A DNA stretch of 64,000 nt from an uncultured Bacteriovoracaceae bacterium (GTDB taxonomy: Bacteria > Bdellovibrionota > UBA2394). Position 1 is the stretch's first letter. Each line of letters starts with the position of its first letter. The notes beneath the pieces were generated by a model that did not search any database, had not been told where the DNA came from, and was given only the letters and a program-made list of their open reading frames with translations. The translations under genes and the position numbers were made by a program. Shown piece by piece: positions 3,935 through 21,936 of this stretch. The stretch is from contig CAZRLF010000001.1 of NCBI GenBank assembly GCA_964601045.1, forward strand, positions 134,402 to 198,401, in the 5' to 3' direction.

Positions 3935-5016
3935 AAAAACTGGCAGATAAAGCCATGCAGTCCAAATGGGGACGCTTAGGCATCTTGATTATGGGCGCTT
4001 GTATTAGCGTGATCTGTCTTTACCTTGCATTTCAAAAAATAGATCTCAAAAATTTCTCACGGCACCTGTTCGCAATGAATATTGGCGCACTCCTTGCAGC
4101 AATTGCTCTTATGCAATTTAATAACTTTATACTGGCTAAACGGTGGGCTTTGCTACTGCAGCCCTTAAAATATGTTCCTTACTGGACTGCATTTTGGAGC
4201 CTAAGAATTTCGTTTTTCTTTAATGCTACCCTGCCGGCGCGGTTGGGCGAACCTTTTCGCATCTTCTACGTAAATCGAAAAACAAAACTTCCCATGACGA
4301 AAGCCATCGGTGCGATGGCTGCGGATCGATTTATTGATTTTACGACTATGCTTGCCGTTCTTTACGTTTCGGTGATCGTTCTCGGAATTCGCGGAAGTTT
4401 AGCTACTACTAAAACAATTGCCGCGAGCTTAGTTCTTGGAATTCTCACTCTCCTTGCACTTGCTAAACTGCCCCGCGGATCAAAATGGACGTGGCTCGAT
4501 AGAGTCTTAAAAGTTCGCGCCAGTATTTTTGAGGGGATGACTCCTCTATTGCGATGGAAAACTCTTCTTCCCACTTTGCCCTTGAGTTTTTTGGCATGGT
4601 TTTTTCACGGACTCACAATTGTCATTTTTTCTTACGGTGTGGGCGAGCCCATCAGTCTCTTTAAAGCTTTTGTCGTTGTAGCCAGCGTCACTGTGGCCAT
4701 TGCCATTCCTTCGAGTCCGGGCCATATAGGAACATTTGAATTGGGAGCTATGACGGCTCTTCGTTACTTTGGAGTTCCCTTTGAGGCGGCAGCAACAATT
4801 GCCGTGCTCTATCATATGGTTCAGCTCATTCCGACTCTGCTGATTGGGGCATACGGCTATTATTTTCATTTCTTAAAACTGCCTCAGAAGAAAGTTTCTT
4901 CTTCAGACAATAAAACCACCCATCTTCAATCTTCTAAGCAGGAATTTATTTTAGACTTTGATATGCCTTCGACAAATTCGTCTGAAAACGAAACTTCAAA
5001 AATTGTTTATCACTAA
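3931..5016 (+). CDS. Polytopic membrane protein, flippase-like domain (UPF0104 / lysyl-PG-synthase TM-region family)
   Basis: About 8 predicted TM helices. The N-terminus ...GRLGILIMGACISVICLYLAFQKIDLKNFSRHL...LLAAIALMQFNNFILAKRWALLLQPL is typical of the flippase-like family that accompanies glycosyltransferases. The ATGA start overlaps the GT4 stop, indicating an operon. Confidence 0.55.
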   Translation: MKKLADKAMQSKWGRLGILIMGACISVICLYLAFQKIDLKNFSRHLFAMNIGALLAAIALMQFNNFILAKRWALLLQPLKYVPYWTAFWSLRISFFFNATLPARLGEPFRIFYVNRKTKLPMTKAIGAMAADRFIDFTTMLAVLYVSVIVLGIRGSLATTKTIAASLVLGILTLLALAKLPRGSKWTWLDRVLKVRASIFEGMTPLLRWKTLLPTLPLSFLAWFFHGLTIVIFSYGVGEPISLFKAFVVVASVTVAIAIPSSPGHIGTFELGAMTALRYFGVPFEAAATIAVLYHMVQLIPTLLIGAYGYYFHFLKLPQKKVSSSDNKTTHLQSSKQEFILDFDMPSTNSSENETSKIVYH

Positions 5017-5774
5017 ACGTCTTTAAGACTTACAAACTGATAGCCCTTATCTTTAAGCCCTCGAATAATTTGGGAAAGAGCTTCAGCCGTCTGTGCTCGG
5101 TCAGGATTTAACTTAGCTCCGTCTCCATCGTGTAGGAGAAGAATTTCGCCTGCTTTTAATTGAAGTGAACGTTCCACGATCACCGAAACTCCAGGTCGCT
5201 TAGAATCCCAGACTCCCCTGCCCCAACCACACAAAATCCAACCTCGCCTTTTTAATTCTCGAACGCCGAAAAAATTTTTAAAACCATGAGGAAATCGAAA
5301 TAGATTATCATGTTCAATTCCTAAAGACTTAAAGGCAGCTTCAGTTTGATCGAGTTCTTTTTTTATAAATTCAGGGTTCTTCAAATGCATTTTTGTATGC
5401 GAAAAGGCATGAAGCCCCACTCCATGACCTTCGTTTTTAATTCGTCTGGCAATTTCGGGATGTCTTAGAAGATTTGATCCCAATAAAAAAAATGTGGCCT
5501 TAATCTTTTCAGTATTTAGAGTATCTAAAATTTTACTGGTCCATTCACTCGGCCCATCGTCAAATGTAAGTGCTATGGCACGCGGCCCTGCTTTTTTCAC
5601 ATTGAGGAGTGCTTTTCCAAAAAAATTCCATTTTGGATAAATCATCTCCGCACCGAGTAAAGCGGCAAGCATAAAAAGAAGACCCAGCGGCCAAGCTAAA
5701 ACCCAAAGCAGTAAATCGAGGCCGCAAAGTGCAAAAACTATGAAGGTTACCTTGAGCCGAACTTTAAGAGGCAT
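5013..5774 (-). CDS. Polysaccharide deacetylase (NodB homology domain, CE4) with an N-terminal TM anchor
   Basis: Carries the NodB motif-1 IALTFDDGPSEWTSKILDTLNTEKIKATFFLLG plus the His motifs HGVGLHAFSH and LLLHDGDG. The N-terminus has a hydrophobic anchor. Confidence 0.8.
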   Translation of the reverse strand: MPLKVRLKVTFIVFALCGLDLLLWVLAWPLGLLFMLAALLGAEMIYPKWNFFGKALLNVKKAGPRAIALTFDDGPSEWTSKILDTLNTEKIKATFFLLGSNLLRHPEIARRIKNEGHGVGLHAFSHTKMHLKNPEFIKKELDQTEAAFKSLGIEHDNLFRFPHGFKNFFGVRELKRRGWILCGWGRGVWDSKRPGVSVIVERSLQLKAGEILLLHDGDGAKLNPDRAQTAEALSQIIRGLKDKGYQFVSLKDV

Positions 5775-5788
5775 AGGATTAATTTAGT

Positions 5789-5824
5789 CAAAAAAAAGCC
5801 CCTGGAAAGGTTTTTTCCAGGGGT
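5789..5824 (-). terminator. Intrinsic (rho-independent) terminator read on the minus strand, 22 nt upstream of the deacetylase start codon
   Basis: On the minus strand the element reads CCCCTGGAAA-aaacc-TTTCCAGGGG followed by CTTTTTTTTG. This is a 10-bp GC-rich stem (plus 5799-5808 and 5814-5823) with a U-tract (complement of the A-run 5790-5797). Confidence 0.7.
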
Positions 5825-6060
5825 TCAAGTTACGTCTTTACGGCAACTTTAAATGTGTATTCGGTGACACACTTTCTGAAGATCTAGTGGGACCTCCAGA
5901 AGGCAGCCACCGAACGTAATTCACATAACGTCACGGCACCACCTCCTTCCTGTTCTCTCGTGAGAACAACTTTAAGGTATCATGGTCTTCAGTAATTGTC
6001 TAAGCGCGCCGCTCGCATGGATTTTTTGTGGCTAAGCAACTGAGGATGTTTTATTGATAG
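5797..6060 (-). ncRNA. Candidate structured RNA, either a cis-regulatory leader/attenuator/riboswitch-like element for the deacetylase gene or an independent small RNA; class not identified
   Basis: The 293-bp intergenic region is GC-richer than its surroundings and holds no ORF. The minus-strand reading contains a long enclosed hairpin CTGAAGA...TCTTCAG (plus 5876-5992, about 117 nt). Inside it lie an inner perfect hairpin GTTCTC-ACGA-GAGAAC and a further hairpin TGTGT-caccgaa-TACACA. The element ends in the intrinsic terminator described above. Confidence 0.35.
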
Positions 6061-6067
6061 ATATCAA

Positions 6068-6460
6068 ATGTTCGCAAAAGTTACAGAAGGAATTCGCATC
6101 GAAGTTCAGCCTCTTTATATTCCTGAAGAATCAAACCCGCGCGAACAGAGATTCTTTTTTGCCTATCGCGTAATGATTCAAAATATAGGTAGCGAAAGTG
6201 TGCAGCTTCTGAATCGTCATTGGATTATCCTCGATAATCTCGGCAATTCTGAAGAAGTCAAGGGACCTGGCGTGGTCGGCAAGCAGCCTACTTTGCCGCC
6301 AGGAACAGCATTCGAATATACAAGCTACTGCCCACTTAGAACACCAACAGGAAGCATGCGAGGCACCTACGAATTCATTCGCACAGACGGATCAAAATTC
6401 TTAGCTGAAATTCCTGAATTCGATTTAATCAAACCCGACGCTCGCCCCACTCTACATTAA
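6068..6460 (+). CDS. apaG: ApaG (DUF525) protein
   Basis: MFAKVTEGIRIEVQPLYIPEESNPREQRFFFAYRVMIQNIGSESVQLLNRHWIILDNLGNSEEVKGPGVVGKQPTLPPG matches ApaG across its full length. Confidence 0.85.
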   Translation: MFAKVTEGIRIEVQPLYIPEESNPREQRFFFAYRVMIQNIGSESVQLLNRHWIILDNLGNSEEVKGPGVVGKQPTLPPGTAFEYTSYCPLRTPTGSMRGTYEFIRTDGSKFLAEIPEFDLIKPDARPTLH

Positions 6461-9384
6461 TCGCTTCCGGGTGCTGCATTTTGTTTTTGCCGCTGAACTT
6501 GCTTGGGATAATTCGTATCCAAAAATGTCTGCACTTCACCTTTTACTTTTCCAGGGACAAAACCATCTTGTCTAAATGCGATCTCCCCTTTTTTGTGAAA
6601 GATCATAGTCGTTGGATACTGACTTACTCCATATTGTTTAAGTGTCTCAAGATTTTGACTTCCATCGAGAATAACGACTTTCATTCCGGGATTTTCATTG
6701 GCCAAAGCTTCGACTTCAACTCGCTGACTTTTACAGGGCCCACAGCTTGGATTCATAAACTGAATCAATACAGGTTTACTCGACTGCAAGACTTCTTTCT
6801 TAAAATCAGCCCCTTTAATTTCTCGCACTAGACTTTTGATTAATTGTTCAGGAGCTACATCTGAAGCTTGAGGAGCATCAACGGGCTTAGCCGTATCTGT
6901 ACTTGTACCCTGTGCTGGCTCGCCACCGTTTCCTCGTCGACGTCTGAAGCTTTCAACTCCCGACTTAACTTCATCAGAAGGTCTGCTGGGCAAATCTTTT
7001 CTCGAAACTATCGCGGCTTCAACATCAGCATGAGTAATCGGCTTAAGTTCTCCCTGAGGAACAGGGCCCTTATGATCCGGAAACTTGGTCATATAATCAT
7101 CGATCACTTGGTTTAGTTTATCATTTCCAAGTTGCTGAATGATACTTGCGATATCAGCACCGGTATATCCTTCGAGTTTTTTGGCTAAAGCAAAATAATC
7201 AATTGCTTCGTCTTTTTCGGGCTTAAAGGCATAAGCTTCAAACGCTTTTTGCATCTTCTTCATATTGATTTTAAGAATCGCCTCTCGAGCTTCGAGATCG
7301 GGGTTAGGAATAAAATACCACTGATCAATACGACCAGGACGAATAAGCGCATCGTCTAATAAGTCGGGCCTGTTCGAAGCTACGATAATCACGACATTAT
7401 CGACTCGACCTCCCACACCATCGAGCTCCTGCAAAAACTGGTTAACAATTTCGTCGTCAGATTTATTTCCGAAACCGCCGCGCTGACCACCAATTGAATC
7501 AAATTCGTCTAAGAACACAGTGACGATTCCTTCTTTTGAGGCCGCGACCAAATCCTTTTGAGACTGTTCTCGAATAGCCTTAAATAAACTTTTGACGTTC
7601 TTCGCACCCTGAGACACCCATGTGCTTTTAATATTGGCAGCATTGACATTCATAAACTTACCACCAAGCTCATGCGCAATGGCCTTCGCCATCAAGGTTT
7701 TACCATTACCAGGATAACTATACATACCGATCACTGCACGAGGTGGAACACGATAAGCTTTAGCTGCCTCAGGATTATTTACAGGATTAAAAATTCCTTT
7801 TTTGATAGCGGCTTTTACTTCGTGCATTCCCCCGATATCGTCAAAACCGGTATCAGGAATTCCTTCGACCTCAAACTCGGTCGACTTAGTTCCAAACTCA
7901 CTATCGCCTCGAACGGCTGTTCCACCACCAGTATTGGCGAAGGTCGAGACTTTCATTTGCCTTCCCACCATTTCGAGAAGAGTTTTATCAACTTTGGTAG
8001 GGTTTAAAGTTCGCTCTCTCTGAGAATCAGCAAGCAGAAGTTGTTTCTCGTTAATTTCTTTCTCTAGCATCCTCTTACGAATTGCGAGCTCAGCAACTTT
8101 AGCAAACTGACCTTCATCATAAGAATTTTTTAGTTTCGTAAGCTCTAGATCGATTTCAGAGAGCTTCATATTTAAACCAACAATATCTTGCATCATCCCT
8201 TTTTCTTTAGAAACTTGATTGCTGAGTTGATCCAACTTTCTTAAGACCTGCTCTCGCTCGACTTCCAATTTTTTAAGTTCTTCTTGAGCCTCGGATCGAC
8301 CGCGGATTTCATCTATTCGATCTTCGATTCTCTTAAGATCCCTATTGGTGCGACGAACATCCAGAGGCTTCGCATTTGGATCACTAGCACGTTTGATCTT
8401 AGCCACAGCCATTTGTAAAAGTTGCTCAGTAGCAGTGATGACATTTTGATCTTTAAAAGAAGCTTCAGCAATTCGATGTGCATCTCGAAGTGCTTGTTGA
8501 TCAATAATCAGGCCCGACGACTTTTCAATTGTACTTCTGACTTTGGCAAGAGCATCCAGAACATCGGCTTCGTCTAAAGGCTTAAGCTCTGTTCGATATT
8601 GAAAATGCTTATCGTCAAAAAAATCACTCGAACTAACAAGCTCTTTATTCTCAGCGGTAACCAAAAGTTTTAGATTGCTATTTTCAGTCTCAGCAATCTC
8701 TCTCAGTGCATTCATGACCGCCGTTTTTGCTTCTGTAATAGGAGGGCCTAAAAGCTCATCAATGTTTGGAATATATAAATAGTGAACATCTTTAGAACCT
8801 TTCGAGCGAGCATCTCGAGCATTTTGCATTATTTTAAGAAGCGGACCTTCAGGCTGAACGAGAGTTCCTTTTTCATCCTGCCTCCGAGAAGTCTGCGCCA
8901 TTGAACGCCAATCAATTCGATGAATCTTTACGTTCTTCATCTCTTTAGAGAGCTCCCCCTTCTCACTGAGATCTACAAAGCGATGAACTAGACTGTCTTT
9001 TCCGACATTCTTCTTTCCAACAACGGCGATATTGTGGCCGGCTAATATTCTAGACTCAAGATCTTCAACTTCTTGATCTCGTCCAACACGCTCTTTAACA
9101 GCAATATGGTTAATACCGTCGCTATTGCTTGAAGTTCGAGTAATGGTTCCAGCGAGATGGCGCCCAACGCTTTGAAGCAAATGCCCACAGGCTTCAGCTG
9201 AAGGAGTTTCGGGATTAGTAGGATTGGCCGGCTCAGTGGGCTTTTTACCCCCAAAGCCGAAAAGACCCCGCTTTTCAGTATCTTCGGCAAAAGCAGGCAG
9301 TGCGAGATAGGCTACCAACTGCAATGCTATTAGCCCTACAGCCAAACCACGACCTTCAAAATGTCTTATACGCCTTAAGTTCAT
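6457..9384 (-). CDS. Membrane-anchored double AAA+ protein: signal-anchor, degenerate ClpB-like D1, coiled coil, classic AAA (CDC48/FtsH-type) domain and C-terminal thioredoxin
   Basis: The N-terminus MNLRRIRHFEGRGLAVGLIALQLVAYLALPAFA is a signal or anchor sequence. VGRDQEVEDLESRILAGHNIAVVGKKNVGKDSLVHRFVDL plus ...VHYLYIPNIDELLG follow the Hsp100 D1 layout. A roughly 150-aa coiled coil follows (RIEDRIDEIRGRSEAQEELKKLEVEREQVLRKLDQL...). The classic AAA domain reads YSYPGNGKTLMAKAIAHELGGKFMNV...VTVFLDEFDSIGGQRG...VIIVASNRPDLLDDALIRPGRIDQWYF. The C-terminal thioredoxin LIQFMNPSCGPCKSQ has its CGPC at about 6733-6744. Confidence 0.75.
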   Translation of the reverse strand: MNLRRIRHFEGRGLAVGLIALQLVAYLALPAFAEDTEKRGLFGFGGKKPTEPANPTNPETPSAEACGHLLQSVGRHLAGTITRTSSNSDGINHIAVKERVGRDQEVEDLESRILAGHNIAVVGKKNVGKDSLVHRFVDLSEKGELSKEMKNVKIHRIDWRSMAQTSRRQDEKGTLVQPEGPLLKIMQNARDARSKGSKDVHYLYIPNIDELLGPPITEAKTAVMNALREIAETENSNLKLLVTAENKELVSSSDFFDDKHFQYRTELKPLDEADVLDALAKVRSTIEKSSGLIIDQQALRDAHRIAEASFKDQNVITATEQLLQMAVAKIKRASDPNAKPLDVRRTNRDLKRIEDRIDEIRGRSEAQEELKKLEVEREQVLRKLDQLSNQVSKEKGMMQDIVGLNMKLSEIDLELTKLKNSYDEGQFAKVAELAIRKRMLEKEINEKQLLLADSQRERTLNPTKVDKTLLEMVGRQMKVSTFANTGGGTAVRGDSEFGTKSTEFEVEGIPDTGFDDIGGMHEVKAAIKKGIFNPVNNPEAAKAYRVPPRAVIGMYSYPGNGKTLMAKAIAHELGGKFMNVNAANIKSTWVSQGAKNVKSLFKAIREQSQKDLVAASKEGIVTVFLDEFDSIGGQRGGFGNKSDDEIVNQFLQELDGVGGRVDNVVIIVASNRPDLLDDALIRPGRIDQWYFIPNPDLEAREAILKINMKKMQKAFEAYAFKPEKDEAIDYFALAKKLEGYTGADIASIIQQLGNDKLNQVIDDYMTKFPDHKGPVPQGELKPITHADVEAAIVSRKDLPSRPSDEVKSGVESFRRRRGNGGEPAQGTSTDTAKPVDAPQASDVAPEQLIKSLVREIKGADFKKEVLQSSKPVLIQFMNPSCGPCKSQRVEVEALANENPGMKVVILDGSQNLETLKQYGVSQYPTTMIFHKKGEIAFRQDGFVPGKVKGEVQTFLDTNYPKQVQRQKQNAAPGSD

Positions 9385-11094: not shown

Positions 11095-14000
11095 TTGGTT
11101 AACTGGAGATTTAAATTCTTTCAGTTTTCGATGATTTTTACCCTTTTGGTAAAGGGTGAGTCCTTACGTGCGTCTAACGATGCCTGCGAGCCTAAAAGTG
11201 CCATTCAAGAGCTTCTGCAGTCAGCTCAGAATCCAGTTAATTCCAATCAAGACATCCCAACTGACCCATCGCCTTCAATTCGTTCTAATGGAAATGCGCC
11301 TCAGAATCCTCCCCCGGCGGTTGAATTGCCAGTTCCTGCAACCACCGACGGAAAAGTTGCAGCGTTTTTTCAAGCTTGGCGAGAGAAAGTGCAAACCAAA
11401 GTTGAAACTCCTGAAAGCAAAAAGCTAAAAGATAAAATTCTTTCTGAGTACGGAGTAAAACCGATCTCCGAATATTTGGTATCAAAGTCGGTCAGCGCTG
11501 CGCTTAAATTTTATTTAAGATGGGAAAATCCTACTTACCGTGATGCAAAATCTACTCCTGCACATTTTGCCGATATTCGAGTGGGAGACGATCTTAAATT
11601 AGCCCAGATTTTTGGCGTTTCTTCGGCTGAAAATCGCGGCATTCAAGATATGATTTTTAATGATCTGCTTAAAACCCCAGAAGGCAAAAAAAAGATTATC
11701 GCCGTTGGAGATATTTTAACTCTTTTCTTTGATACCCATTTAACGGACAACTTACAACTTAACCCCGAGCAGAGAGAGATCCTCTTGAGCTCGATGACCG
11801 AAATCAAATTAAATTCTAACGGAAATCTTGAAACCACCGCTGATTTTCCTCGTCTTGATCAGATTGAAAAATTTAATCAAGCTTACGTAGAATCATTTAA
11901 TAATCTTTCTGCAAATCTCGTGGATGAAAATGGAGATCGTCCTGATAACACAGTCGTACGAAATCTTCTAAAAGAAGCATTCTCTAAGCGCCTTAAAAAA
12001 ATTCAAAAAGATGCTAAGGGAGCTCTGACCTTTGATTTAGTTTTAAATGCCATTCAAATTACTCCGGCAGATCTAGAAGAATCAAAATCAACAGCCACGC
12101 AATCAAGTGAATTTGACAAAATGCTTCTCATGCACGCTCACCTTTCTCAAACTGAAAATTATAATAAATCTAGCGCGTATCGACTATTCTCAAGCGCAGC
12201 AGACCACAGCGCCGGAAAAATCCAAGCTTATAAAGATCTCTATAATCCGCCCGCAAGTGAACTTGCAAAAAAAACTGAAGATTCAGAAATTAAAAATCAA
12301 GAAAGTAAAATTCTTTCTGCAACTGTCGGCAATACAACCATGTTTGAAGGCACGCCCCTTATTAATTTTGGCGCTCTTCCCATCTCACAACGAGATCGAG
12401 AAATTCTGCAAAAACAAATTAAAAACGATATAAAGGGCTCATTCTCTCTAAGCTCAAACCAATCAGATCCTGGAGCAGACGCATTTAAAGACGCTCGCTA
12501 TGCCGACCCAAGACAATTTTTGCCGAAAGGTAAAAACAAAAAAGGCGAACTTGAAGCGCCTTATTACGAAAATCCTTACCGCATTCAACTGCAAGCTCAC
12601 GCCTCACCTGCTCCTCCAGCCTCTTATATTGCCGGCGGCTGGAGGATTCCACTTGAGTCAGGCGGAGTTCGCATATTTACCGATCAAGAGTTTGAAACAT
12701 ATAAAACGGCCGCCATGAATGCTGAAGTTGAAAAACGTATTGAGGCCATGCTGAAAAACGGAGTCGAAATTGATTTGCGGACTCTTCTTTCAAATGCCGA
12801 TCGTTACGACACTCAAGGTTTTTTTACCGGCGGTAAAATTGAACCCAAAACTGGCAAATGGAGAGATCCTTTTTTAAGACGTCATCGAGATAAATCGGGA
12901 GGAGAAATTGATTTTAAAGGTGAAATCAAAAATAGATACGATCTATCTCTTCAAATTTTAAGGTTCGCGCTTAATAAACCAGATTTAAAATCTATTCCTA
13001 TTACGTATTCAGACCTTCTTTTTTGGCCTGAAGAAGAGCTTACTGCATTACTCACAATTAAATCTCTCACTCGTGATACTTCTCTTTTAGAAGTCGATGC
13101 CTCTGGGCGGCTTAAAAGATTTGACAGCAAACAACTTGCCACTAAAGCATCTGATCTTTTGGGATGGAAACTAGATGTTGAGAAGAAACTAGGATTTTTT
13201 CCTGATATTCATTTTTCAAATGAAAAAGAGCTGCTCTCGGCCGTTGAGAAAATCAATGCCGCACTTAAAGATAAAGAATCATTAGCTCCCGGAATTCCTC
13301 TTGTTCATCTTGGATGCCTAGAAAAAGATGGCAAACTCGTTGGAGGTTTTCTCCCCGAAGGAGAAGTGAAACCCTTAAGCCTTACTGATTTCAGAAAGGC
13401 TTATAGAGAAAAAAAAGAAGAGGTTAAAGCTCCTTTATTTAAATCAGCCAATGAGTTGGTCGAAAAAATAGACTCTTGCATGGCTGAAGTTAAAAAAGAG
13501 AGGAATGACTTAATTAAGTCAACGACCTTAAGCCTTCAGACATTCGGTAAGAAGCTCTTTTCAAATCGGCTTAAAGCCTATATTCGATATCGATTTCAAA
13601 TTGAAGATTATCTCGATCAAAAAGCAGGCAAAGCAGTTAAAACGGGAGATAGACTTAAGGCATTTGAAGCAAAATTAAAAGCCAACGAGGCTCAAAATCT
13701 TTCTCAAGAACAAAACGAAACATTTCTTTTGAATGAATGGAACTCAATTACTGCAGAGAGGTTTAAAGAAATAGCTCTATTTAATCGCCAACTGATCGAT
13801 AGTCCCGATGCTGACCTTAAAGAGTCCGAACTTAAAGAACTCGCAAAAAGCGCTCAAAAAACTTTTGACTCGTCAGATATTCAATTTTTGCGACAAAATC
13901 GCCTAAGCATATTAGCCAATTACATTATTGAATCGCCCCAGCTCCCTACAGCTCAAAAAATTGAAAAACTCGAGGCCTATCTTAGATTAAGATACGCTGC

Positions 14001-17000
14001 TGAAGATTATCTCGACCAAAAAGAAGGTAAAAAAATATCTTTAGGAGCACGTGCTCGTGCTTTGGATGCTGCCCTTGCTCGAGATGATTTTAAATCAAAA
14101 TCCACATCTGAAACTATTTTGAAAGCATTGGAGTTTGAATGGAAGTCTTTCCAAGTAGAGCGAATGGCTGAAGTTTCAGATCTCATATCGCAAGTGGCGG
14201 TTAAGCCTCAAAACACAATCACAGACTCGGCAGAGCAAACTGTGGCTGTGACTCTATCAAAAGCCATGAATCAAGATGAACTGCTTGATTTAAATTCAGA
14301 TCATTTAAATCTTCTTCTCAATGATCAGTATAATTCTGCTGAAAAAATCAAACTCATTAATCTCTCTCATTTCTCTTTGAGTGAGCTAGATGCTCTTCAC
14401 TTTTTATCAACTCGATATGGTTGGAATGAGGTCATATTTGCCGCAGAATCAACAGATGGCATGGGACTTCGCCTGTTTGATTGGCTTAATAAAGCGGCAT
14501 CAAATAAAATTGATTCGGGAAAAGTTCAAACACTTTCTATTTTAGATTCTTATGTCCTTTTGAACGCTTCTCATGAACTTGCTGTTGCAAGTGGAATTAT
14601 TCCTACTCTTTGGGGAGATAACTGGAAAGCCACACTAGAAAATATAAACAAAGCTCCACTAACAGGTGTCAATTTAAGGCAGATTGGTAATTACAATTCA
14701 ATTCCGATCATTGAAACACTTAGACTTCATCAAGATGAAGCTTCTCGCTACTTTACATATGATAATATCATTAAATCATTTCGCCCTACTCGGGAGGTTA
14801 AGCCCGTATTTGATCTTGAGAAAGACTCTCTTGAGTCATTAGCGCGTTGGAACATTCCTACTGATCCCAAACATTTACAAAAATTAACTGAAATGGCTGC
14901 AGTTTTTAAATGGGACATGATCAAAGAAGCCTATCTTAAAAACATGAAGGACGAGAAGAAGTCTCAAAAGGAACAGGATGATAAGAGAAAAGAAATCGAA
15001 GAATATAAAAATGGAGTTCATCCAGACCTCGTTAAGTTCTATCGACAAAATCAAAATTTAAAAAATTATCATACTTTAGCGGAGAGAATGAAAATTACTC
15101 CTGAAAAGGATAACACCTTAGCTCGAAAATCATTTTCGGGTCGCTCTGTTTTTGAAACTAATTCTCAAGTAAGTCAGTCACTACAGGCCGGACTTGTTTC
15201 TTTAGACGTCTTTTTAGATGACTTTTTTGCTGACTCAAAAAATATTTTGACTAAAGAAATCAAAGAACGACTCGAGTCGAGCACTCCTGGATCAGCCGAT
15301 ATCACTGCCCTCAATATGATTGGGTTTGATACCAATACAAAAAGCTTTCAAAGTGCTATTGCTCAAATCAAAGCAGAGAACAAACCTCTCGCCGAAGAAC
15401 TTCTTCAACAAAGTCAGCTTTTCTTAAAAGCAGGTCGAGAGCTTCAAAGCAGTTTTGAACAAGGTGGCCTTTCTCGAGACGACTTTAAAAAGATTCTTTA
15501 TGCTGCCAATCAAAGAGAAGAAATCATGCTCGAAATTATCGGCAAAGAGAAAAATAATATTAAAGAAGGCAGCAGCGTGAGTAGCACAGCTTCAGAAAAG
15601 ATTCTCTCAGCGGCCAAAGTTCAACTCCCCTCATCAAAAGCGGGCCGTGCCAGAGCTGCTAAGCAGCTAGATAGTTTAAGAGCCTTGATGAGTTCATCTC
15701 AGGTTTTATTCGCTAACTTTCATGAGTCACTGAGTACAATGGTGGCCCGTTATTCGATTCCACTTCTTTTTGAAGAAATTAGATTAAACGCTGAAAAGAG
15801 CCCCCTCGGCGAAGAGATTCTCTCTCAACCTCAATTTCAGCAGAACTTAATCAGCTCAGGGCTGGAGAGGGCAAGCGAACTTTCTAATTTGGGTAGCCTT
15901 ATAGATTTAAATTCTGTCTCCGCTGCATTGGCAGATGCCACTCTCAATGAAGGCTTTAAGGTCGGTGAATTTGAATCTGAAGTTCGCAAGATGTTTTCTT
16001 ATCACTACGATCTGAACCGCCTCCTCTACGGAAAATCCTTTGATCCTGTGGGCTTTAATTTTTATAAGGGACTCGAAGGCAACGCACGAACTTCTGGCAG
16101 TGATACAGATCATATCGATAAAATTTTGATCGCAAAAATTAATGAGATTCGAAAGCGCCAGCACGACTCAGTTGATCGAATTTCTAACCTTTTGACGGCT
16201 AAACTTAAAACTCTTCCTGAAACTCATGCCTTAGGTAAGTTTTTGCAAGTTCTTGCCGAAGGAGTTGCAGTTAAAAAAGCAAAAAATGCTAAAGGTGAAC
16301 CCACATTCGAAATTTCATCGGCTCTTAAACTAAATACGGAGCGCAATGAAAAGGATCAAATAATCTATAAAGGAACACTCTCTGATCTCGTTTCTTTCGC
16401 AAAATTCACTGAAAGACCATTGAGCGCTGACCCAGATTTTTTACCGATTGGAGAACGAGATCAATCTTATGCTGTGAGATACGATAAATTCGAAGAACAA
16501 TATAAAAATATATTTAAGAACAATCCTAAATTTGCTGATTCTTACGAAACGCGTCGTAATCAAGGTAAGCTTCAAACCAGTCTTGATCGCCTTGGTCAGA
16601 AACGAAGCATTTCGATTCCACTTAAGAATAGACTTGAAGGGCTAAAAGACTTTCTCAGTGCCGCAAGAGCTCAACCCCAGTTTAATACCCAAGAAGTTCA
16701 AATGCTTTTTGAGAAAATGGAGTCTGAAAATAAAGTCAACCTCAACAATTTCTTTCTATCGATTTACTTTGCTCTTCAAACTCAATTGGGCAAGCAAATG
16801 CCTGATAGCATATGGGCTGATAAAGAAGCCGCTGCTCAAGAGGCCATTAATAAATTACTTCAAAAAAGTATTGAAACATTTCCAGCTGATATTCAGTCGA
16901 ATGCTCAGATTCAGGAAATCCTTAAGGCGATAAAAGAAGCCAAAGTTTCGTCATTTGTAAAATTAGATTCTAAAGCCACAGCGGAGCAGAAAGCCGCCGC

Positions 17001-20000
17001 TGACCCAATGAACTGGCCTTCGTTTAAAAAAGCCTTTCCTCAAGGCCAAGGCGACGAGGTTAAATCGATTTATCAAGAGCGTGATGACTATTTTAAAAAT
17101 GAAGAAAATCAAATTGGCAATCTTATTGAAGATGGAATTGATCGCCTACTGATCGATCCCAATGGTAAAAAATTTAATATCGCTGGACGATTTGCACCTT
17201 ATGCTTATCGATTTCAAGATAAAGATTTAAACGCTTCCGTGAAAAATATTCACTCAAGCTTAATGACCTTCATCTCTAAGCAGGAAGATTCATTTTACAA
17301 TATAGCTCAGCGCTCGGATAGTCTTACGAAGATCACCGAAGATCTCTATGGCTATCGATACCCTATGCTTAAAGCGAGAATCAGCGAAGGCGTTGAAAAG
17401 TTTGAAAAAGCAATTCATCACCTACTTGAGACTGAAAACATCTCTCGTCTTCGATTGAGAGACCTTGATGGCGCTCGTTTAAATACCGAGCAAATGGAGA
17501 GCCTACTTTCGTGTACCTACACTGAAGCCTCAAAAAAAATTAGTGAAAAAATAACATTCGATACGGCGTTTGAGATGGCACTGAACCCTGCCGAGATTTC
17601 AAATAGCTGTCTTAAAGATTTTAAAGAAAAAGATGACCTCTTAAAGAGTGAGGCTTTTAAAGAACAATTGAAGATGATTTCAAGTCGTGCCAGCGTAATG
17701 ACTGACGTGCTTAATCAGGCTGGTGCTTTGGCCATGCAAATTTCACCAGAGAATTTAAGAAAAACAAAAATTCTTCCACGAATTATTTTAAACCTTAAGG
17801 ATTTTTCTCGCGTTGATAATCAACTCGGCATCTCAATGTCTAAATTAATTGAAGGCCTCAATATTCTTAATAAAGAAGAACTCACCGTTCAATACGAAGA
17901 CCTTAAAGCCAAACGAGAAACCCGCCAAAGACACGATAGCTCTTGGTATCAGACTATTCCAGGAGACGTAGGGTCTATGATTGTTCATAGCGGACAAAGT
18001 CTATGGGAAGAAACCTATCGCCTTGGCATCGAAAATCTCGCCTTTAACGCGGCATGGGCAATGACTGGCTGGGATGGTAAAGAAAAATTTGATTCGCTCC
18101 AAAAGTTCTTCGGTCAATATTCAGCTTCGCATTTTACTCCCGAAAGAATTCAGAACCTTGCTGAGAAAAAATCTCATCGCATTCCTTTGATTGGCTTAGA
18201 TGTGAATGTCTACTCAGCTCAAGATGTAGGTGATGGAGTTGGACTTGCTCTTACTTTGATGACCTTTGGTGCCGGTAAAGCTGTGACTACTCTTGCTCGC
18301 GAAACAGCGCTTGAATCGCTTGCGACTAAAGTGTTTAAAGACTCGATTGCCGAAAAAGTTCTAGTTCAAACAGCTTCTGGCTTCTCAGCCGCCACTGAAG
18401 GCGGCATCACTGCTGCAAAAACATTACTCCGTCGCCCAACAACTTTGAGCGTTCAAGAAGCGGCAATTCAGGCCTATGAAAAGTCGATTCAGCAATTGTC
18501 AAAAGGGTCGATCTGGCAGAAGGAAATTCGCCTGATGGGCCAAGCTCCTGCGAAGAGCAGTATTGCAAAAACGATAAAGGCTTTGGGCGATGAGACCGCT
18601 CGAATTCCAGCAGGCACTCAGACCTTTAAACAAACGATGGCGGCTAATGCAAGAGCAGCAAAACAAATTGCGACTGCGTTTGGAACTAGAATTGGACTTG
18701 ATTCGGCTTGGCTTGCCGCCGGTGGCGTGATCTCTTTACTTGCCACCTATCAAAATTTAGGCGGAGAAAATTCAGCCTCTATGCTGGGTCAAGGCACCTG
18801 GGAAAACATGAAGTTTCTCACGGCCTTTATTTTGACCATGAGCTTAACTCATAAGATGCCGTGGGTGAATAGAACTCTCAATGCAGCTTTAATGAGTTCT
18901 ATCTTTAATGATTGGGCTAAGAATGGAGTGATATATTTTGATACAATGGGCGAATCGCGTCGCTATACCGCCTATCTCAAAGCCGATGGCACCTTTGATC
19001 AAATGGCACTTCGTAAAAATCCCGATGCAGATGCTATTTTTAAAGAATACCAAGATGATACGCAGGCCAAAGCTAAGTTTATTTCTGCCTCGTTTCTCGT
19101 TGCTCTCATTGGTATTGGACCTAAAATTGGTCAGTTTGCTGATCGAACCAAAGCCAAAGGAATGGAGTTAAGTGAAAACACCGATCTTAATTCAGGTCTT
19201 ATTTCAACGCTTGGAGGAGCTTACGGCAGCCGTCCCGATCGGTTGTATGACTATCTTGTTCAATTTAGAACCAAGAGATTACTAGAAAAAGAAGTTCAGA
19301 CCGCTAGAGAAAATAACGCAAGTCCTCGCCCAGAAGCTCTAATTAAAAAAGACGCTGAAGCAGAAATTCAAAAACAATTTTGGTATGTCTATCAGGCAGC
19401 ATTTCCGGAAGCTCGAGTTACCTCAATGGTCGCTCTTTGGAAGCTTTCGGGCCAATACTCTGAAGGAATGCGTAATATCGCCCTTAAAAATCTAAAAGAA
19501 AATTTTAATAAGGATTTTCATGCCGATGAAGTTGTCGATGGCCTCCCTGGTTTGCGCACTTCTTATGGAAAAGAACGCAAGCTTACCTGGAAAGAAGTGC
19601 AAGAAAAATTCAATAAAGCTTGGGATGAAGGCTTGAGACAAGGCGATGAATTTTTGGCTCGTCAGATTAGTGAGATGACGGGTGGTGAATTATTGGGAGA
19701 GAAACTTAAAATCTTTGCCGCTCTTAATCAGAAACTGGATGAAGTAGAAGTTGGCAAGGAAACTCGAAGTCTAAATGAGGTTCTTAACGATGTTCTCGAT
19801 TCATTTGGTGGAGTGGCCACTTGGAAGACCGATGCAGGTCAATTATTCCTCCATCGAATTATAATCCCCAGAATGATTGCGGCTAAAAATAGAGTTGAAT
19901 TAGGAGTGCTCTTCGATGGTGCTCCTAATCTTTTAGTCCCAGATTCTCAAAAGAATCCTCGATTCTCAGCCGATATGTTTGCCAAACTTTTAAATGAGAA

Positions 20001-21936
20001 AATTTATGAAGCAGGTACTCCTGCTGTCTTTCTTTCATATCCTGCAGAAGCTGGGGGTGTAGCCAAAATTTCTTATACGACTCGCCAAGGAAGTATTGAA
20101 ATCCTTACCGATGCTCAAGGCCAGAGATTCCTTAAGCTGCCCGAATCCGATAAGCCTATTTTAATTCCTGAACATATTCAGATTGTTCCTCTTAATTCTG
20201 GCCGCCTTAAATTAATTTCAGAAAAAAAATCTGAAGAAAAAGAAATTTCATCAAATGGCCATGCTGTTACAGCTGAACTTGCTGCCTTTGACTCGGCATT
20301 TAAAGATCAAACAACAGCCCCTCTTAGCTTGATGCAGAATCTTCCTAAACATGCCGAGTCATACCCCACTCGTGTGGTCGAATTTAAACTTCGCGAAGGT
20401 CTTAAGAAAGAAGACTCAAGCATTGCCAGTATCAAGCGAAAATTGGGGCTGCAAAAAGAAAAGCGAGCCGCGATTGTTGTCGATCTCAATTCTAATATTG
20501 AACAAGCTTTTATCGGAAATAATACCGTGCTGATTCGATACAAAGGTAAAAAACCGGTAAATTTTTTAATGCCTGATCCTATTTTGGAACAAAGTGGTCT
20601 AATTCAAGAGAGGTGGAAGATTGAATCTATCGCGAATGATGGCCTTACAATTCGTGATCAATACCATCAACGCATTAAGATTGATTTCGCCAATGATAAA
20701 GTAGAAGTCTTTAAAGAGGATTCTAGAACTGGAGAAATGAATAAAATTAAACAGTATGAGCAAAACGGCAAAGATATGACCATCCAGCAATTTAAAGATA
20801 TGATGGAGAACTTTCCTGGCCTTCTACCTACCGAGATTATGATCGGTCTCAATCATATGAATTTTAACTTGGGTGGCTCTACACTTACAGTTGCTTCAAA
20901 AGTGGAAATCGCGAAAGAAATGCAAGAAAAAGAGCTGATAGATTCGCTTGCTGATCTTAATCTCGGCAGTATTCCTCGCGATCGCCTCACACCCCAAACC
21001 ATTCAAAAGCAGGCCAATACACGAATTGAACAGATTGGACCTGAGAAAAGCCGAGAAGAAATTGAAAGACACCGAGGACCTGAATTGGCCTTAATTAAGG
21101 TGCCTCATGATTTAATGTCTGATGGCCAGCTCAGTAAACTCAGTAAACACCAAATGTCTCGCTTTATTGATCAATCAAAAATTGAAAAACTTGAATCGAA
21201 AATGGGAGCTCTGGATGGACTTTTGATTCAAAAATTTGAAGTCATATTTGGTAAACCTGAATCGGAATGGACTCCTGCTCAAAAGCTTCAGGCTAAGAAA
21301 ACATTCTATCTCTCTCGTCTTAAACCTGAGCAATATCGAGAAATTCTTACCGAAGATGAAATAGCCTTTATCTTCAGAATGACAAATATCGAGAATAGAA
21401 TTCGCTCACATGAAACTCGGGCCTTAAGACTTCTTGCATCTACATTGGTCGATAAAGCTGAAACAACGCTTAGTCTCACCGGAAAGCGAGTTCATCCTGA
21501 AGTCGATGCCAAGGCCAACGATTTGATTGAACAAGCCAAGATGGATTTTGTAAAATCCGCGCTTGAGGGAAATCGAGAAAGCTTACGGCTTCTCGAACGA
21601 GCGATTAGCCGGGAAGAACTCGTAGGGCAAATTGATGTAAGTAAACTTTCACAAGAACAAAAAATTTACTTAGCTCAAGATAAAATCCCGACGAGTGTTT
21701 GGGAAAAGGCAGAAGGTAAAATGGATCGAATACCTCCCGAGCATATACAGGCTATTACAGAAGCAGATATTCGTCAGGGAGCGTCGAAAGACACTATTGA
21801 TTATCGAATGCTCGTAGGCGCCATTGTTAAACCTGAAAAAGTTGTTTCAATGTTGACCGGAAAACGCCTTGAGGAAGTTCCGAATCTGAAATCACAGATC
21901 CAAAGTTTTGAAAAAGCAAAAGATACTCTGAAGTAA
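11095..21936 (+). CDS. Giant (3613 aa) K/E-rich, mostly alpha-helical protein with a weak N-terminal signal-like segment, internal repeats and a central Gly/Ala-rich hydrophobic domain; putative secreted toxin or effector
   Basis: One uninterrupted 10.8-kb ORF. The SD GGAGGA at 11085-11090 precedes a TTG start at 11095; ATG 11131 is an alternative. No recognisable catalytic motif. Internal repeats include KAYIRYRFQIEDYLDQKAGK versus EAYLRLRYAAEDYLDQKEGK. The hydrophobic, glycine-rich central region spans about 18.2-19.2 kb (...GVGLALTLMTFGAGKAVTTLARETALESLA...AAKQIATAFGTRIGLDSAWLAAGGVISLLATYQNLGG...). Confidence 0.85.
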   Translation: MVNWRFKFFQFSMIFTLLVKGESLRASNDACEPKSAIQELLQSAQNPVNSNQDIPTDPSPSIRSNGNAPQNPPPAVELPVPATTDGKVAAFFQAWREKVQTKVETPESKKLKDKILSEYGVKPISEYLVSKSVSAALKFYLRWENPTYRDAKSTPAHFADIRVGDDLKLAQIFGVSSAENRGIQDMIFNDLLKTPEGKKKIIAVGDILTLFFDTHLTDNLQLNPEQREILLSSMTEIKLNSNGNLETTADFPRLDQIEKFNQAYVESFNNLSANLVDENGDRPDNTVVRNLLKEAFSKRLKKIQKDAKGALTFDLVLNAIQITPADLEESKSTATQSSEFDKMLLMHAHLSQTENYNKSSAYRLFSSAADHSAGKIQAYKDLYNPPASELAKKTEDSEIKNQESKILSATVGNTTMFEGTPLINFGALPISQRDREILQKQIKNDIKGSFSLSSNQSDPGADAFKDARYADPRQFLPKGKNKKGELEAPYYENPYRIQLQAHASPAPPASYIAGGWRIPLESGGVRIFTDQEFETYKTAAMNAEVEKRIEAMLKNGVEIDLRTLLSNADRYDTQGFFTGGKIEPKTGKWRDPFLRRHRDKSGGEIDFKGEIKNRYDLSLQILRFALNKPDLKSIPITYSDLLFWPEEELTALLTIKSLTRDTSLLEVDASGRLKRFDSKQLATKASDLLGWKLDVEKKLGFFPDIHFSNEKELLSAVEKINAALKDKESLAPGIPLVHLGCLEKDGKLVGGFLPEGEVKPLSLTDFRKAYREKKEEVKAPLFKSANELVEKIDSCMAEVKKERNDLIKSTTLSLQTFGKKLFSNRLKAYIRYRFQIEDYLDQKAGKAVKTGDRLKAFEAKLKANEAQNLSQEQNETFLLNEWNSITAERFKEIALFNRQLIDSPDADLKESELKELAKSAQKTFDSSDIQFLRQNRLSILANYIIESPQLPTAQKIEKLEAYLRLRYAAEDYLDQKEGKKISLGARARALDAALARDDFKSKSTSETILKALEFEWKSFQVERMAEVSDLISQVAVKPQNTITDSAEQTVAVTLSKAMNQDELLDLNSDHLNLLLNDQYNSAEKIKLINLSHFSLSELDALHFLSTRYGWNEVIFAAESTDGMGLRLFDWLNKAASNKIDSGKVQTLSILDSYVLLNASHELAVASGIIPTLWGDNWKATLENINKAPLTGVNLRQIGNYNSIPIIETLRLHQDEASRYFTYDNIIKSFRPTREVKPVFDLEKDSLESLARWNIPTDPKHLQKLTEMAAVFKWDMIKEAYLKNMKDEKKSQKEQDDKRKEIEEYKNGVHPDLVKFYRQNQNLKNYHTLAERMKITPEKDNTLARKSFSGRSVFETNSQVSQSLQAGLVSLDVFLDDFFADSKNILTKEIKERLESSTPGSADITALNMIGFDTNTKSFQSAIAQIKAENKPLAEELLQQSQLFLKAGRELQSSFEQGGLSRDDFKKILYAANQREEIMLEIIGKEKNNIKEGSSVSSTASEKILSAAKVQLPSSKAGRARAAKQLDSLRALMSSSQVLFANFHESLSTMVARYSIPLLFEEIRLNAEKSPLGEEILSQPQFQQNLISSGLERASELSNLGSLIDLNSVSAALADATLNEGFKVGEFESEVRKMFSYHYDLNRLLYGKSFDPVGFNFYKGLEGNARTSGSDTDHIDKILIAKINEIRKRQHDSVDRISNLLTAKLKTLPETHALGKFLQVLAEGVAVKKAKNAKGEPTFEISSALKLNTERNEKDQIIYKGTLSDLVSFAKFTERPLSADPDFLPIGERDQSYAVRYDKFEEQYKNIFKNNPKFADSYETRRNQGKLQTSLDRLGQKRSISIPLKNRLEGLKDFLSAARAQPQFNTQEVQMLFEKMESENKVNLNNFFLSIYFALQTQLGKQMPDSIWADKEAAAQEAINKLLQKSIETFPADIQSNAQIQEILKAIKEAKVSSFVKLDSKATAEQKAAADPMNWPSFKKAFPQGQGDEVKSIYQERDDYFKNEENQIGNLIEDGIDRLLIDPNGKKFNIAGRFAPYAYRFQDKDLNASVKNIHSSLMTFISKQEDSFYNIAQRSDSLTKITEDLYGYRYPMLKARISEGVEKFEKAIHHLLETENISRLRLRDLDGARLNTEQMESLLSCTYTEASKKISEKITFDTAFEMALNPAEISNSCLKDFKEKDDLLKSEAFKEQLKMISSRASVMTDVLNQAGALAMQISPENLRKTKILPRIILNLKDFSRVDNQLGISMSKLIEGLNILNKEELTVQYEDLKAKRETRQRHDSSWYQTIPGDVGSMIVHSGQSLWEETYRLGIENLAFNAAWAMTGWDGKEKFDSLQKFFGQYSASHFTPERIQNLAEKKSHRIPLIGLDVNVYSAQDVGDGVGLALTLMTFGAGKAVTTLARETALESLATKVFKDSIAEKVLVQTASGFSAATEGGITAAKTLLRRPTTLSVQEAAIQAYEKSIQQLSKGSIWQKEIRLMGQAPAKSSIAKTIKALGDETARIPAGTQTFKQTMAANARAAKQIATAFGTRIGLDSAWLAAGGVISLLATYQNLGGENSASMLGQGTWENMKFLTAFILTMSLTHKMPWVNRTLNAALMSSIFNDWAKNGVIYFDTMGESRRYTAYLKADGTFDQMALRKNPDADAIFKEYQDDTQAKAKFISASFLVALIGIGPKIGQFADRTKAKGMELSENTDLNSGLISTLGGAYGSRPDRLYDYLVQFRTKRLLEKEVQTARENNASPRPEALIKKDAEAEIQKQFWYVYQAAFPEARVTSMVALWKLSGQYSEGMRNIALKNLKENFNKDFHADEVVDGLPGLRTSYGKERKLTWKEVQEKFNKAWDEGLRQGDEFLARQISEMTGGELLGEKLKIFAALNQKLDEVEVGKETRSLNEVLNDVLDSFGGVATWKTDAGQLFLHRIIIPRMIAAKNRVELGVLFDGAPNLLVPDSQKNPRFSADMFAKLLNEKIYEAGTPAVFLSYPAEAGGVAKISYTTRQGSIEILTDAQGQRFLKLPESDKPILIPEHIQIVPLNSGRLKLISEKKSEEKEISSNGHAVTAELAAFDSAFKDQTTAPLSLMQNLPKHAESYPTRVVEFKLREGLKKEDSSIASIKRKLGLQKEKRAAIVVDLNSNIEQAFIGNNTVLIRYKGKKPVNFLMPDPILEQSGLIQERWKIESIANDGLTIRDQYHQRIKIDFANDKVEVFKEDSRTGEMNKIKQYEQNGKDMTIQQFKDMMENFPGLLPTEIMIGLNHMNFNLGGSTLTVASKVEIAKEMQEKELIDSLADLNLGSIPRDRLTPQTIQKQANTRIEQIGPEKSREEIERHRGPELALIKVPHDLMSDGQLSKLSKHQMSRFIDQSKIEKLESKMGALDGLLIQKFEVIFGKPESEWTPAQKLQAKKTFYLSRLKPEQYREILTEDEIAFIFRMTNIENRIRSHETRALRLLASTLVDKAETTLSLTGKRVHPEVDAKANDLIEQAKMDFVKSALEGNRESLRLLERAISREELVGQIDVSKLSQEQKIYLAQDKIPTSVWEKAEGKMDRIPPEHIQAITEADIRQGASKDTIDYRMLVGAIVKPEKVVSMLTGKRLEEVPNLKSQIQSFEKAKDTLK
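13573..14034 (+). repeat. Internal tandem-type repeat inside the giant gene (about 133-aa period)
   Basis: gaagattatctcgatcaaaaag (13603-13624) and gaagattatctcgaccaaaaag (14012-14033) differ at one position. The flanking protein segments align (LKAYIRYRFQIEDYLDQKAGKAVKTGDRLKAFEAKLKA versus LEAYLRLRYAAEDYLDQKEGKKISLGARARALDAALAR). Confidence 0.5.

Follow-up and report, generated by a model that had tools for sequence, protein, structure and literature searches.

Directly upstream of a polysaccharide deacetylase gene in the stretch of 64 kb of DNA analysed here (the window), the minus strand carries what, judged from the sequences, is a real small RNA gene, conserved in three related uncultured predatory-type bacteria. 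The gene would extend roughly from position 6002 to 5790 and yield a transcript of ~180 nt that starts at ~5970, in the order extended -10 promoter, 5' hairpin, Shine-Dalgarno (SD) sequence 7 nt before a GUG, open reading frame (ORF) of 16 codons, and intrinsic terminator. The reading that we prefer, and to which we assign a probability of roughly 0.45 (i.e. it is put forward tentatively), is that of an autonomous small transcript or mini-cistron in which a two-state fold would gate the RNA's own ribosome-binding site and the terminator would be constitutive, the deacetylase being expressed via leak-through or from a weak overlapping promoter. A comparison of the three loci shows that the RNA is conserved, that both alternative helices covary, and where promoter and terminator lie.

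The locus and its genomic context

The spacer in question (5775-6067) separates the gene for a membrane-anchored polysaccharide deacetylase (5013-5774, minus strand; Pfam Polysacc_deac_1) from apaG (6068-6460, plus strand; DUF525). Its minus strand folds far more stably than shuffled sequences do (z = -5.4 for 5785-6067 and z = -3.7 for the conserved core), which bears out the original prediction that a structured minus-strand RNA with a terminator lies just 5' of the deacetylase start. That prediction also described the spacer as richer in G+C than its flanks, a description that fits the conserved core (0.50) but not the spacer as a whole (0.43, versus 0.415 for the 64-kb window), and as devoid of ORFs, which is correct in the sense that 5775-6067 holds no ORF of at least 40 aa, but which overlooks a conserved SD, start codon and ORF of 16 codons (5934-5884).

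Several features of the surroundings deserve mention in their own right. In the window the deacetylase gene and a convergent LPG_synthase_TM gene overlap by 4 nt (5013-5016). The same junction in relatives contains differing inserted genes (L083:3301-4013, L089:3662-4603 and L098:1005-2171), namely PIN with a 91-aa ORF, Fic, and AAA_14/DUF4143, and it is possibly an insertion hotspot for toxin-like genes. Further along the plus strand lies a giant ORF (11095-21936; 3613 aa). Its counterparts, which are 2900-4000 aa long and have no Pfam match, end 40-65 nt 5' of the deacetylase in three relatives (L083, L084 and L087), so that, compared with most relatives, the window is rearranged. On the minus strand, 6457-9384 encodes a 975-aa protein in which a long N-terminal region precedes an AAA+ ATPase domain and, at the C-terminus, a thioredoxin domain; word-index searches with the full length and with the N-terminal half of this protein recovered no orthologue, the only match being the protein itself. 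A 940-aa AAA-domain gene is located directly 5' of the RNA in one of the two other loci that carry it (L081), and a 1756-aa thioredoxin-containing ORF adjoins apaG in the P0022 contig (JGI 3300050046). No tRNA genes were detected in the 64-kb window.

Distribution of the RNA

Homologues of the RNA were recovered from two other Bacteriovoracaceae-like MAGs, at loci L081 (ERR10034876) and L097 (GCA_028287765.1), in each case directly 5' of the deacetylase gene and in the same orientation. The L081 copy (2297-2449) is situated between the 940-aa AAA gene and the deacetylase gene, with no apaG there, and the L097 copy (4417-4549) lies within an apaG-deacetylase spacer of 232 nt. The covariance model that found the L097 copy was built from the window and L081 sequences only, and it scored that copy at 67 bits (E 6e-21), the scores for the window and L081 being 137 and 136 bits. 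Among the three loci the core is 62-75% identical, versus 61-62% for the adjacent deacetylase genes, and identity drops to a random level (35-43%) in the spacer 5' of the core, the conservation setting in sharply a few bases 5' of the first helix.

The deacetylase orthologues as a group are 53-66% identical and their tree is star-like; going by the source names of the deacetylase homologues, the window comes from an uncultured Bacteriovoracaceae/Bdellovibrionota-like bacterium. The RNA occurs at three of the 13 distinct deacetylase loci (window included) and is lacking from nine; the P0022 contig, in which apaG and a spacer of 243 nt lie next to the deacetylase gene, was counted apart. The nine loci offer no room for it, as a giant or other ORF ends 2-109 nt 5' of the deacetylase or apaG is 97 nt off, and the covariance model had no match in them wherever the DNA could be scanned. 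Conservation and covariation of the hairpins in orthologous spacers, on which the original prediction had staked its case, are thus found in L081 and L097, where the helices are kept with compensatory changes, yet the RNA is absent at nine of the 13 loci and for that reason cannot be regarded as a general leader of the deacetylase.

The homologue search was confined to the surroundings of deacetylase genes, so the apparent linkage between RNA and deacetylase is ascertainment-biased. Paralogues were not found by the covariance model in the 64-kb window or the other loci. A search of genome contigs with a deacetylase profile employed patterns that were too general and returned distant deacetylases only (L001-L080). 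A metagenome scan with the pattern AAGGAGGTGN{9,13}TTATGTGAATT, which was derived from a pair of close sequences and would miss L097-like variants, gave seven matches, all of which were rejected as chance combinations of an SD and a gene start (e.g. ORFs starting MKLCEL). Nothing was found in the viral contigs that were scanned or, by blastn, in plasmids and phages. The 35-aa antisense translation of the core, used as a query for spuriously called ORFs, matched just one unrelated repeat protein. In L081 an antisense ORF of 68 aa runs across the RNA core (L081:2229-2435, minus strand); no gene was called for it on the contig, its frame has no start codon in the window, and it is probably spurious.

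Probable promoter and transcript start

The RNA is preceded by a promoter-like site on the minus strand (5974-6002) that is composed of a -35 hexamer TAGACA (6002-5997), a 17-nt spacer and an extended -10 element, i.e. TG (5982-5981) followed by TACCTT (5979-5974). The corresponding sites read TTGCCT-16-TG-T-TAAAAT in L081, ending 1 nt 5' of the core, and TTGTCA-16-TG-G-TAATGT in L097, at the same distance from the 5' hairpin P1. The layout of a -35-like hexamer, a spacer of 16-17 nt and TGn-TAnnnT is hence present at equal distance from P1 in all three loci, the threshold of the promoter scan being passed by the L081 site only, with the sites in the window and L097 falling below it. Because of this shared distance the probable start of the transcript is near 5970, which would place P1 at the extreme 5' end, and not near 6060. 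The notion that the leader would be antisense to the apaG 5' UTR then lapses, as the RNA most likely starts near 5970.

The conserved core and its helices

The conserved core spans 5972-5858 on the minus strand (115 nt in the window; alignment columns 1-117, where column i corresponds to position 5973 - i) and contains three local helices. The first, P1 (5968-5951), is the 5' terminal hairpin UGUUCUC-ACGA-GAGAACA, of which two of the seven pairs have changed on both sides (C-G to U-A and U-A to G-U); the GTTCTC-ACGA-GAGAAC hairpin that had been pointed out at the outset therefore exists and is conserved. The second, P2 (5901-5944), is a long hairpin in which the strand that holds the SD and start codon (5944-5934, columns 29-39) pairs with a strand internal to the ORF (5912-5901, columns 61-72), the apical part (5933-5913) being closed by a GUGA loop. 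Its 11 pairs show three one-sided changes, all of them compatible with pairing; pair 39-61 occurs as G-C, U-A and A-U, and pair 34-67 goes from G-C to A-U. The third, P3 (5875-5900, columns 73-98), is the hairpin UCUGGAGGUC-CCACUA-GAUCUUCAGA, with the stop codon of the ORF at the junction of loop and 3' arm; six of its seven shared pairs have changed on both sides, partly as a result of a register shift in L097.

Each of the three helices is 100% paired in the three sequences, despite a divergence of ~35%. Taken together all 25 pairs are formed in all three sequences, versus 41-64% for slid-partner controls, where it should be noted that the alignment of P1-P3 was fitted to the model. The covariation is derived from three sequences, nearly all of it supplied by L097 and thus located on one branch.

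Two other hairpins of the original prediction did not hold up. Neither L081 nor L097 has the enclosing hairpin of 117 nt (CTGAAGA...TCTTCAG). The 5' arm of this hairpin (5992-5986) falls within the promoter spacer, which is not conserved and lies 5' of the likely transcript start, and what had been taken for its 3' arm is the 3' arm of the conserved, local P3. The TGTGT...ACACA hairpin is specific to the window and not conserved. It belongs to a stretch of window-specific filler (5827-5858, minus strand), consisting of an ACACAU arm that closes a hairpin over the third switch strand (see below) and a second hairpin (5848-5827), which is absent in L081 and L097.

A Shine-Dalgarno sequence and a short ORF

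The SD sequence AAGGAGGUG (5940-5948, minus strand) is perfect and does not vary among the three RNAs, not even in its unpaired AAGG; the 64-kb window contains it as a single copy. The sequence AAGGAGGTG likewise occurs once in the 64 kb, inside the RNA. In each of the three RNAs AAGGAGGUG is followed at 7 nt by a start codon, and the three start codons share one alignment column, although the codon itself differs (GUG in the window, UUG in L081, AUG in L097). The ORF in the window (5884-5934, minus strand) starts with the GUG at 5934, comprises 16 codons (MTLCELRSVAAFWRSH) and ends with UAG (5886-5884); in L081 and L097 it measures 19 and 15 codons. Since the indels within the ORF measure 3 and 6 nt, the frame is preserved; the UAG occupies a shared column in the window and L097. 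The encoded peptides (MTLCELRSVAAFWRSH, MSLCELRKVTAFWGMNLRV and MAFEMLLVVTSVVSK) show no conservation among one another and contain no runs of regulatory amino-acid codons.

Two proposed, mutually exclusive folds

The core contains three strands that could be combined in two ways. Strand 1 would be formed by the SD and start codon, strand 2 by codons 8-12 inside the ORF, and strand 3 by the sequence GUG-U-GUCACC just past the ORF (5863-5872, minus strand, columns 101-110; GUG-n-RUCACC across the homologues), which is a near-copy of strand 1. A fourth helix, P4, pairs strand 3 with 5911-5903 (columns 62-70); it encloses P3 and excludes P2, strand 2 being common to P2 and P4. On an alignment that was not fitted to P4, 26 of the 27 cells of its nine pairs are paired in the three sequences, slid-partner controls over all the helices giving 40-64%. 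Moreover, the sequence in which pair 34-67 of P2 has gone from G-C to A-U is also the one in which pair 67-105 of P4 has gone from C-G to U-A, i.e. columns 34, 67 and 105 change jointly from G/C/G to A/U/A. Constrained folding places state A (P2) and state B (P4) within ~3 kcal/mol of each other in all three homologues, with P4 favoured in the window core and L097 and P2 in L081. According to the thermodynamic model the balance between A and B is nearly unchanged from 10 to 45 C, and the modelled accessibility of the SD rises modestly in state B, from 0.35-0.40 to 0.43-0.69.

The evidence for a two-state switch is good but not conclusive, given that there are three sequences and that most changes are on one branch. 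If the switch is real, the pairing of strands 1 and 2 (P2) would bury the ribosome-binding site, and the pairing of strands 2 and 3 (P4, stacked on P3) would withdraw the anti-SD partner; from these alternatives we infer that the RNA controls how accessible its own ribosome-binding site is. The scheme presumes that the short ORF is translated and that there is a cause that flips the fold.

Some observations speak against our preferred mini-cistron. The favoured state differs among the homologues and the gain in SD accessibility is small; almost all of the covariation among the three sequences stems from L097, on an alignment that for P1-P3 was fitted to the model; and the peptide is not conserved, hence the 'SD' strand could be purely structural. 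The deacetylase of the window, finally, is without a canonical promoter of its own, which argues that the RNA is functionally its leader.

The terminator

The intrinsic terminator CCCCTGGAAA-AAACC-TTTCCAGGGG (5790-5823, minus strand) has a stem of 10 bp (six G-C), a loop of 5 nt and a tail of C followed by eight U, i.e. the G+C-rich stem-loop and U-tract by which such terminators are recognized. It is the sole terminator-like site in the region, so that the textbook terminator with eight U that had been reported was confirmed; its distance to the deacetylase ATG, put at 22 nt, is actually 24 nt from the last base of the stem and 15 nt from the last U. Positional counterparts of different sequence are present in L081 (a stem of 15 bp and U8) and, weaker, in L097 (a stem of 9 bp, then AAAUUUUU).

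Folding with the 3' arm of the terminator blocked, combined with a sliding duplex scan, revealed no conserved antiterminator in the three homologues. The best partner of the 5' arm, GCCUUCUGGRGG, reaches -8.4 kcal/mol in the window and -13.6 kcal/mol in L081, with none in L097, versus -17.6 and -23.6 kcal/mol for the terminators of the window and L081 themselves. The terminator is folded in both state A and state B, and the spacer between switch and terminator varies among the homologues. It looks constitutive and would stop most transcripts 15-24 nt before the deacetylase ATG.

A GC-rich hairpin (CCCCTG...CAGGGGC) with a T-run and a 'TGA' box is also present 5' of the deacetylase in loci that lack the RNA, so the terminator may be a general insulator at this position and not a sensor. 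In L082 (2437-2475) the hairpin box follows a 287-aa ORF, where the scan tool did not call it. The window has the box at 5786-5823. In L088 (430-455) an apparent remnant of it, CCCTTGGCCCTTTTTTTGACTAA, is kept, which suggests that the RNA was lost from L088 by deletion.

The start of the deacetylase gene

The deacetylase start region (5772-5786, minus strand) has its ATG at 5774-5772, no SD, and a -10-like hexamer TAAATT (5786-5781) that ends 6 nt before the ATG. The N-terminus MPLKVR is kept in the orthologues, and the start codon call is therefore right. None of nine orthologous loci has an SD upstream of the deacetylase; such an absence is not special, since an SD-like motif of any kind precedes no more than about a third of the window's large ORFs (~11 of 33).

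In the window the 15-24 nt between terminator and ATG hold no canonical promoter. A weak candidate, TTTCCA-16-TAAATT, overlaps the terminator, and transcription from it would start at the A of the ATG. Hexamers resembling a -10 element are found at the same distance of 6 nt in L088 (GATACT, L088:470-492) and L097 (TAGAGT, L097:4581-4595). These observations are suggestive of, although not statistically significant for, a leaderless deacetylase mRNA whose promoter would overlap the tail of the upstream terminator. The argument of the original prediction that there is no room for a promoter, and that read-through is obligatory, is thus plausible for the window but unproven in view of the weak overlapping promoter. 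The deacetylase might be expressed from leak-through transcripts, from this weak promoter, or from both, and any effect of the RNA on it is likewise presumed.

Alternative explanations

The first alternative to be weighed, unlikely in our judgement, is that the RNA is a regulated leader (attenuator), in which translation of the short ORF, as set by the fold or by a bound factor, would tune passage through the terminator and thereby expression of the deacetylase. The RNA is immediately 5' of the deacetylase gene and co-oriented with it in all three loci, the other neighbour being variable (apaG in the window and L097, the AAA gene in L081); the gap between terminator and ATG in the window is short and without a canonical promoter; and the order of promoter, short ORF, alternative helices, terminator and gene is the layout of leader-peptide control. 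Furthermore, a ribosome that stops near an intrinsic terminator can suppress it, full activity being attained only beyond ~30 bp (PMC4824070), and the stop codon is followed by the terminator at 15 nt in L081 and 26 nt in L097. In the window, however, this distance is 60 nt, too far for ribosome shielding, and with distances of 15, 26 and 60 nt such shielding is not a conserved feature. Against a regulated leader there are also the lack of a conserved antiterminator, with a terminator that is folded in both states, the variable spacer between switch and terminator, the nine of 13 orthologous loci that do without the RNA, and the -10-like hexamers 6 nt before the start codon, which hint at a leaderless promoter of the deacetylase's own.

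Comparison with characterized leaders points to the same differences. The RNA resembles the trp, his and pyrBI transcription attenuators in that an intrinsic terminator comes after a short ORF, close to the 5' end of a structural gene, but it has neither regulatory codon runs nor an antiterminator with a strand in common with the terminator, and its ORF ends 15-60 nt before the terminator. The matches to the Rfam family His_leader are below threshold and driven by the terminator. With the ermC, cat-86 and cmlA leaders (translational attenuation) it has in common a promoter-proximal ORF of at most 19 codons with a strong SD of its own, mutually exclusive helices of which one strand lies inside the ORF, and a poorly conserved peptide. 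In those leaders, however, the hidden SD is that of the downstream resistance gene and the leader SD is free, whereas here the hidden SD is that of the short ORF itself. An intrinsic terminator cuts the unit off from the gene that follows; that gene, the deacetylase, lies on the far side of the terminator, lacks an SD and takes part in neither helix, i.e. there is no second helix that hides a downstream SD or start.

We consider it unlikely, too, that the RNA is a non-coding, trans-acting sRNA, in which the SD-like strand would be a purine-rich arm of P2, the ORF would be incidental, and the CU-rich strand 2 or strand 3 (RUCACCG) would pair with other mRNAs. A promoter of its own, a 5' hairpin, several hairpins and a U-tailed terminator make up the usual anatomy of an sRNA, the last of these also being a trait of the Hfq type, and the peptide is not conserved. 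Genes for sRNAs are commonly syntenic with a flanking gene. Such a role accounts less well for the invariant unpaired AAGG, the constant spacing of 7 nt, the start codon that each of the three RNAs possesses and the frame-keeping indels, and in a crude duplex test the pairing of the RNA with the 5' region of the deacetylase was no better than that of shuffled sequences. The dual-function sRNAs SgrS/SgrT, RNAIII/hld and SR1/SR1P resemble the RNA as autonomous, terminated transcripts of ~150-200 nt that carry a short ORF, which in those cases is translated; their peptides are conserved and their pairing targets are known, neither of which is established for the present RNA.

A more elaborate proposal, and a doubtful one, is that the RNA represents a three-strand class of leaders (SD, anti-SD and SD mimic) in Bacteriovoracaceae-like predators, which would sense translation status, a ligand or a protein and, via the short ORF, would set read-through into the envelope polysaccharide deacetylase.

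Sequestration of an SD by an anti-SD, a 5' hairpin and metastable helices recall the RNAs of the hok, aapA, ROSE or fourU type, so that an RNA thermometer or a type I toxin mRNA with an SD hidden by alternative folds has to be considered; we regard both as improbable. A thermometer would have an SD helix that melts over the physiological temperature range; in the thermodynamic model the balance between states A and B does not shift from 10 to 45 C. The hallmark of type I toxin-antitoxin systems is a conserved hydrophobic toxin, usually of at least 19 aa, together with an overlapping antisense RNA gene. With hok/sok, aapA1/isoA1 and tisB the RNA does share a 5' hairpin, folds that are alternative or metastable, and a small ORF whose SD is masked by an anti-SD, but its peptides (15-19 aa) are too short, neither hydrophobic nor membrane-like, and not conserved, and an antisense RNA gene is not evident, in that no pair of promoter and terminator on the plus strand covers the locus.

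A metabolite or ion riboswitch of a new class, controlling the short ORF or the terminator, is highly improbable. It would be in keeping with a two-state fold that involves the SD and with the failure to match a known class: in agreement with the original prediction, in which no riboswitch class was recognized, Rfam 15 gave no match at gathering thresholds in the whole 64-kb window, and an E-value search with all three homologues produced inconsistent matches far below threshold, mostly driven by the terminator. Yet there are few conserved unpaired nucleotides, and those that are invariant in the three sequences belong mostly to the SD, to a UGAA in the P2 loop and to AGUG/UCACCG, the last of which is explained by P4. 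The apical region of P2 differs in L097 (GCAUU-UGA-AAUGC versus ACGUUAU-GUGA-AUUACGU), so that an invariant ligand pocket is not obvious; neither a multi-helix junction nor a pseudoknot came to light, and the downstream gene gives no clue to a ligand. Among specific candidates that were rejected, a guanidine-II-like ACGR loop is confined to P1 of the window (ACGA; the others have ACUG and ACAG), and SRP-like and 6S-like readings find no support in Rfam. What defines a transcription attenuator or transcriptional riboswitch is a conserved helix that competes with the terminator; none was found in the three homologues, and the element is kept upstream of just three of the 13 orthologous genes. 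In view of the lack of both an Rfam match and a conserved antiterminator, a riboswitch or classical attenuator is not supported. From the attenuator, riboswitch-like leader and small RNA that were originally listed side by side, it is the small RNA or mini-cistron that fits best, whereas the other two sit poorly with the missing antiterminator and the nine loci out of 13 without the RNA.

That the structures have no function, and are chance hairpins beside an ordinary terminator, is very unlikely: the distribution is restricted and two window-specific hairpins are not conserved, but the L097 copy was matched by the covariance model at E 6e-21, the helices are fully paired at ~35% divergence, and conservation is seen in the core, whereas identity in the remainder of the spacer is no higher than random.

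Conclusion

The RNA makes up an uncatalogued family of a familiar kind, in which an SD is occluded by way of alternative helices around a short ORF. Its arrangement is unusual in that the hidden SD is that of the short ORF itself and the SD mimic lies downstream. To our knowledge, apart from one abundant c-di-GMP riboswitch RNA, almost no RNA-based regulation has been described for Bdellovibrio-like organisms. The design is clean and directly testable, with one strand common to two helices and three co-varying positions, and it is located before a gene cluster for an envelope-modifying deacetylase. The family has three members in a narrow lineage, and should it be merely a lineage-specific small RNA, it would be a useful annotation with little wider consequence. 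If, on the other hand, the fold does gate translation or read-through, it would constitute a compact natural switch and would provide a handle on the way in which these predators regulate the chemistry of their envelope.
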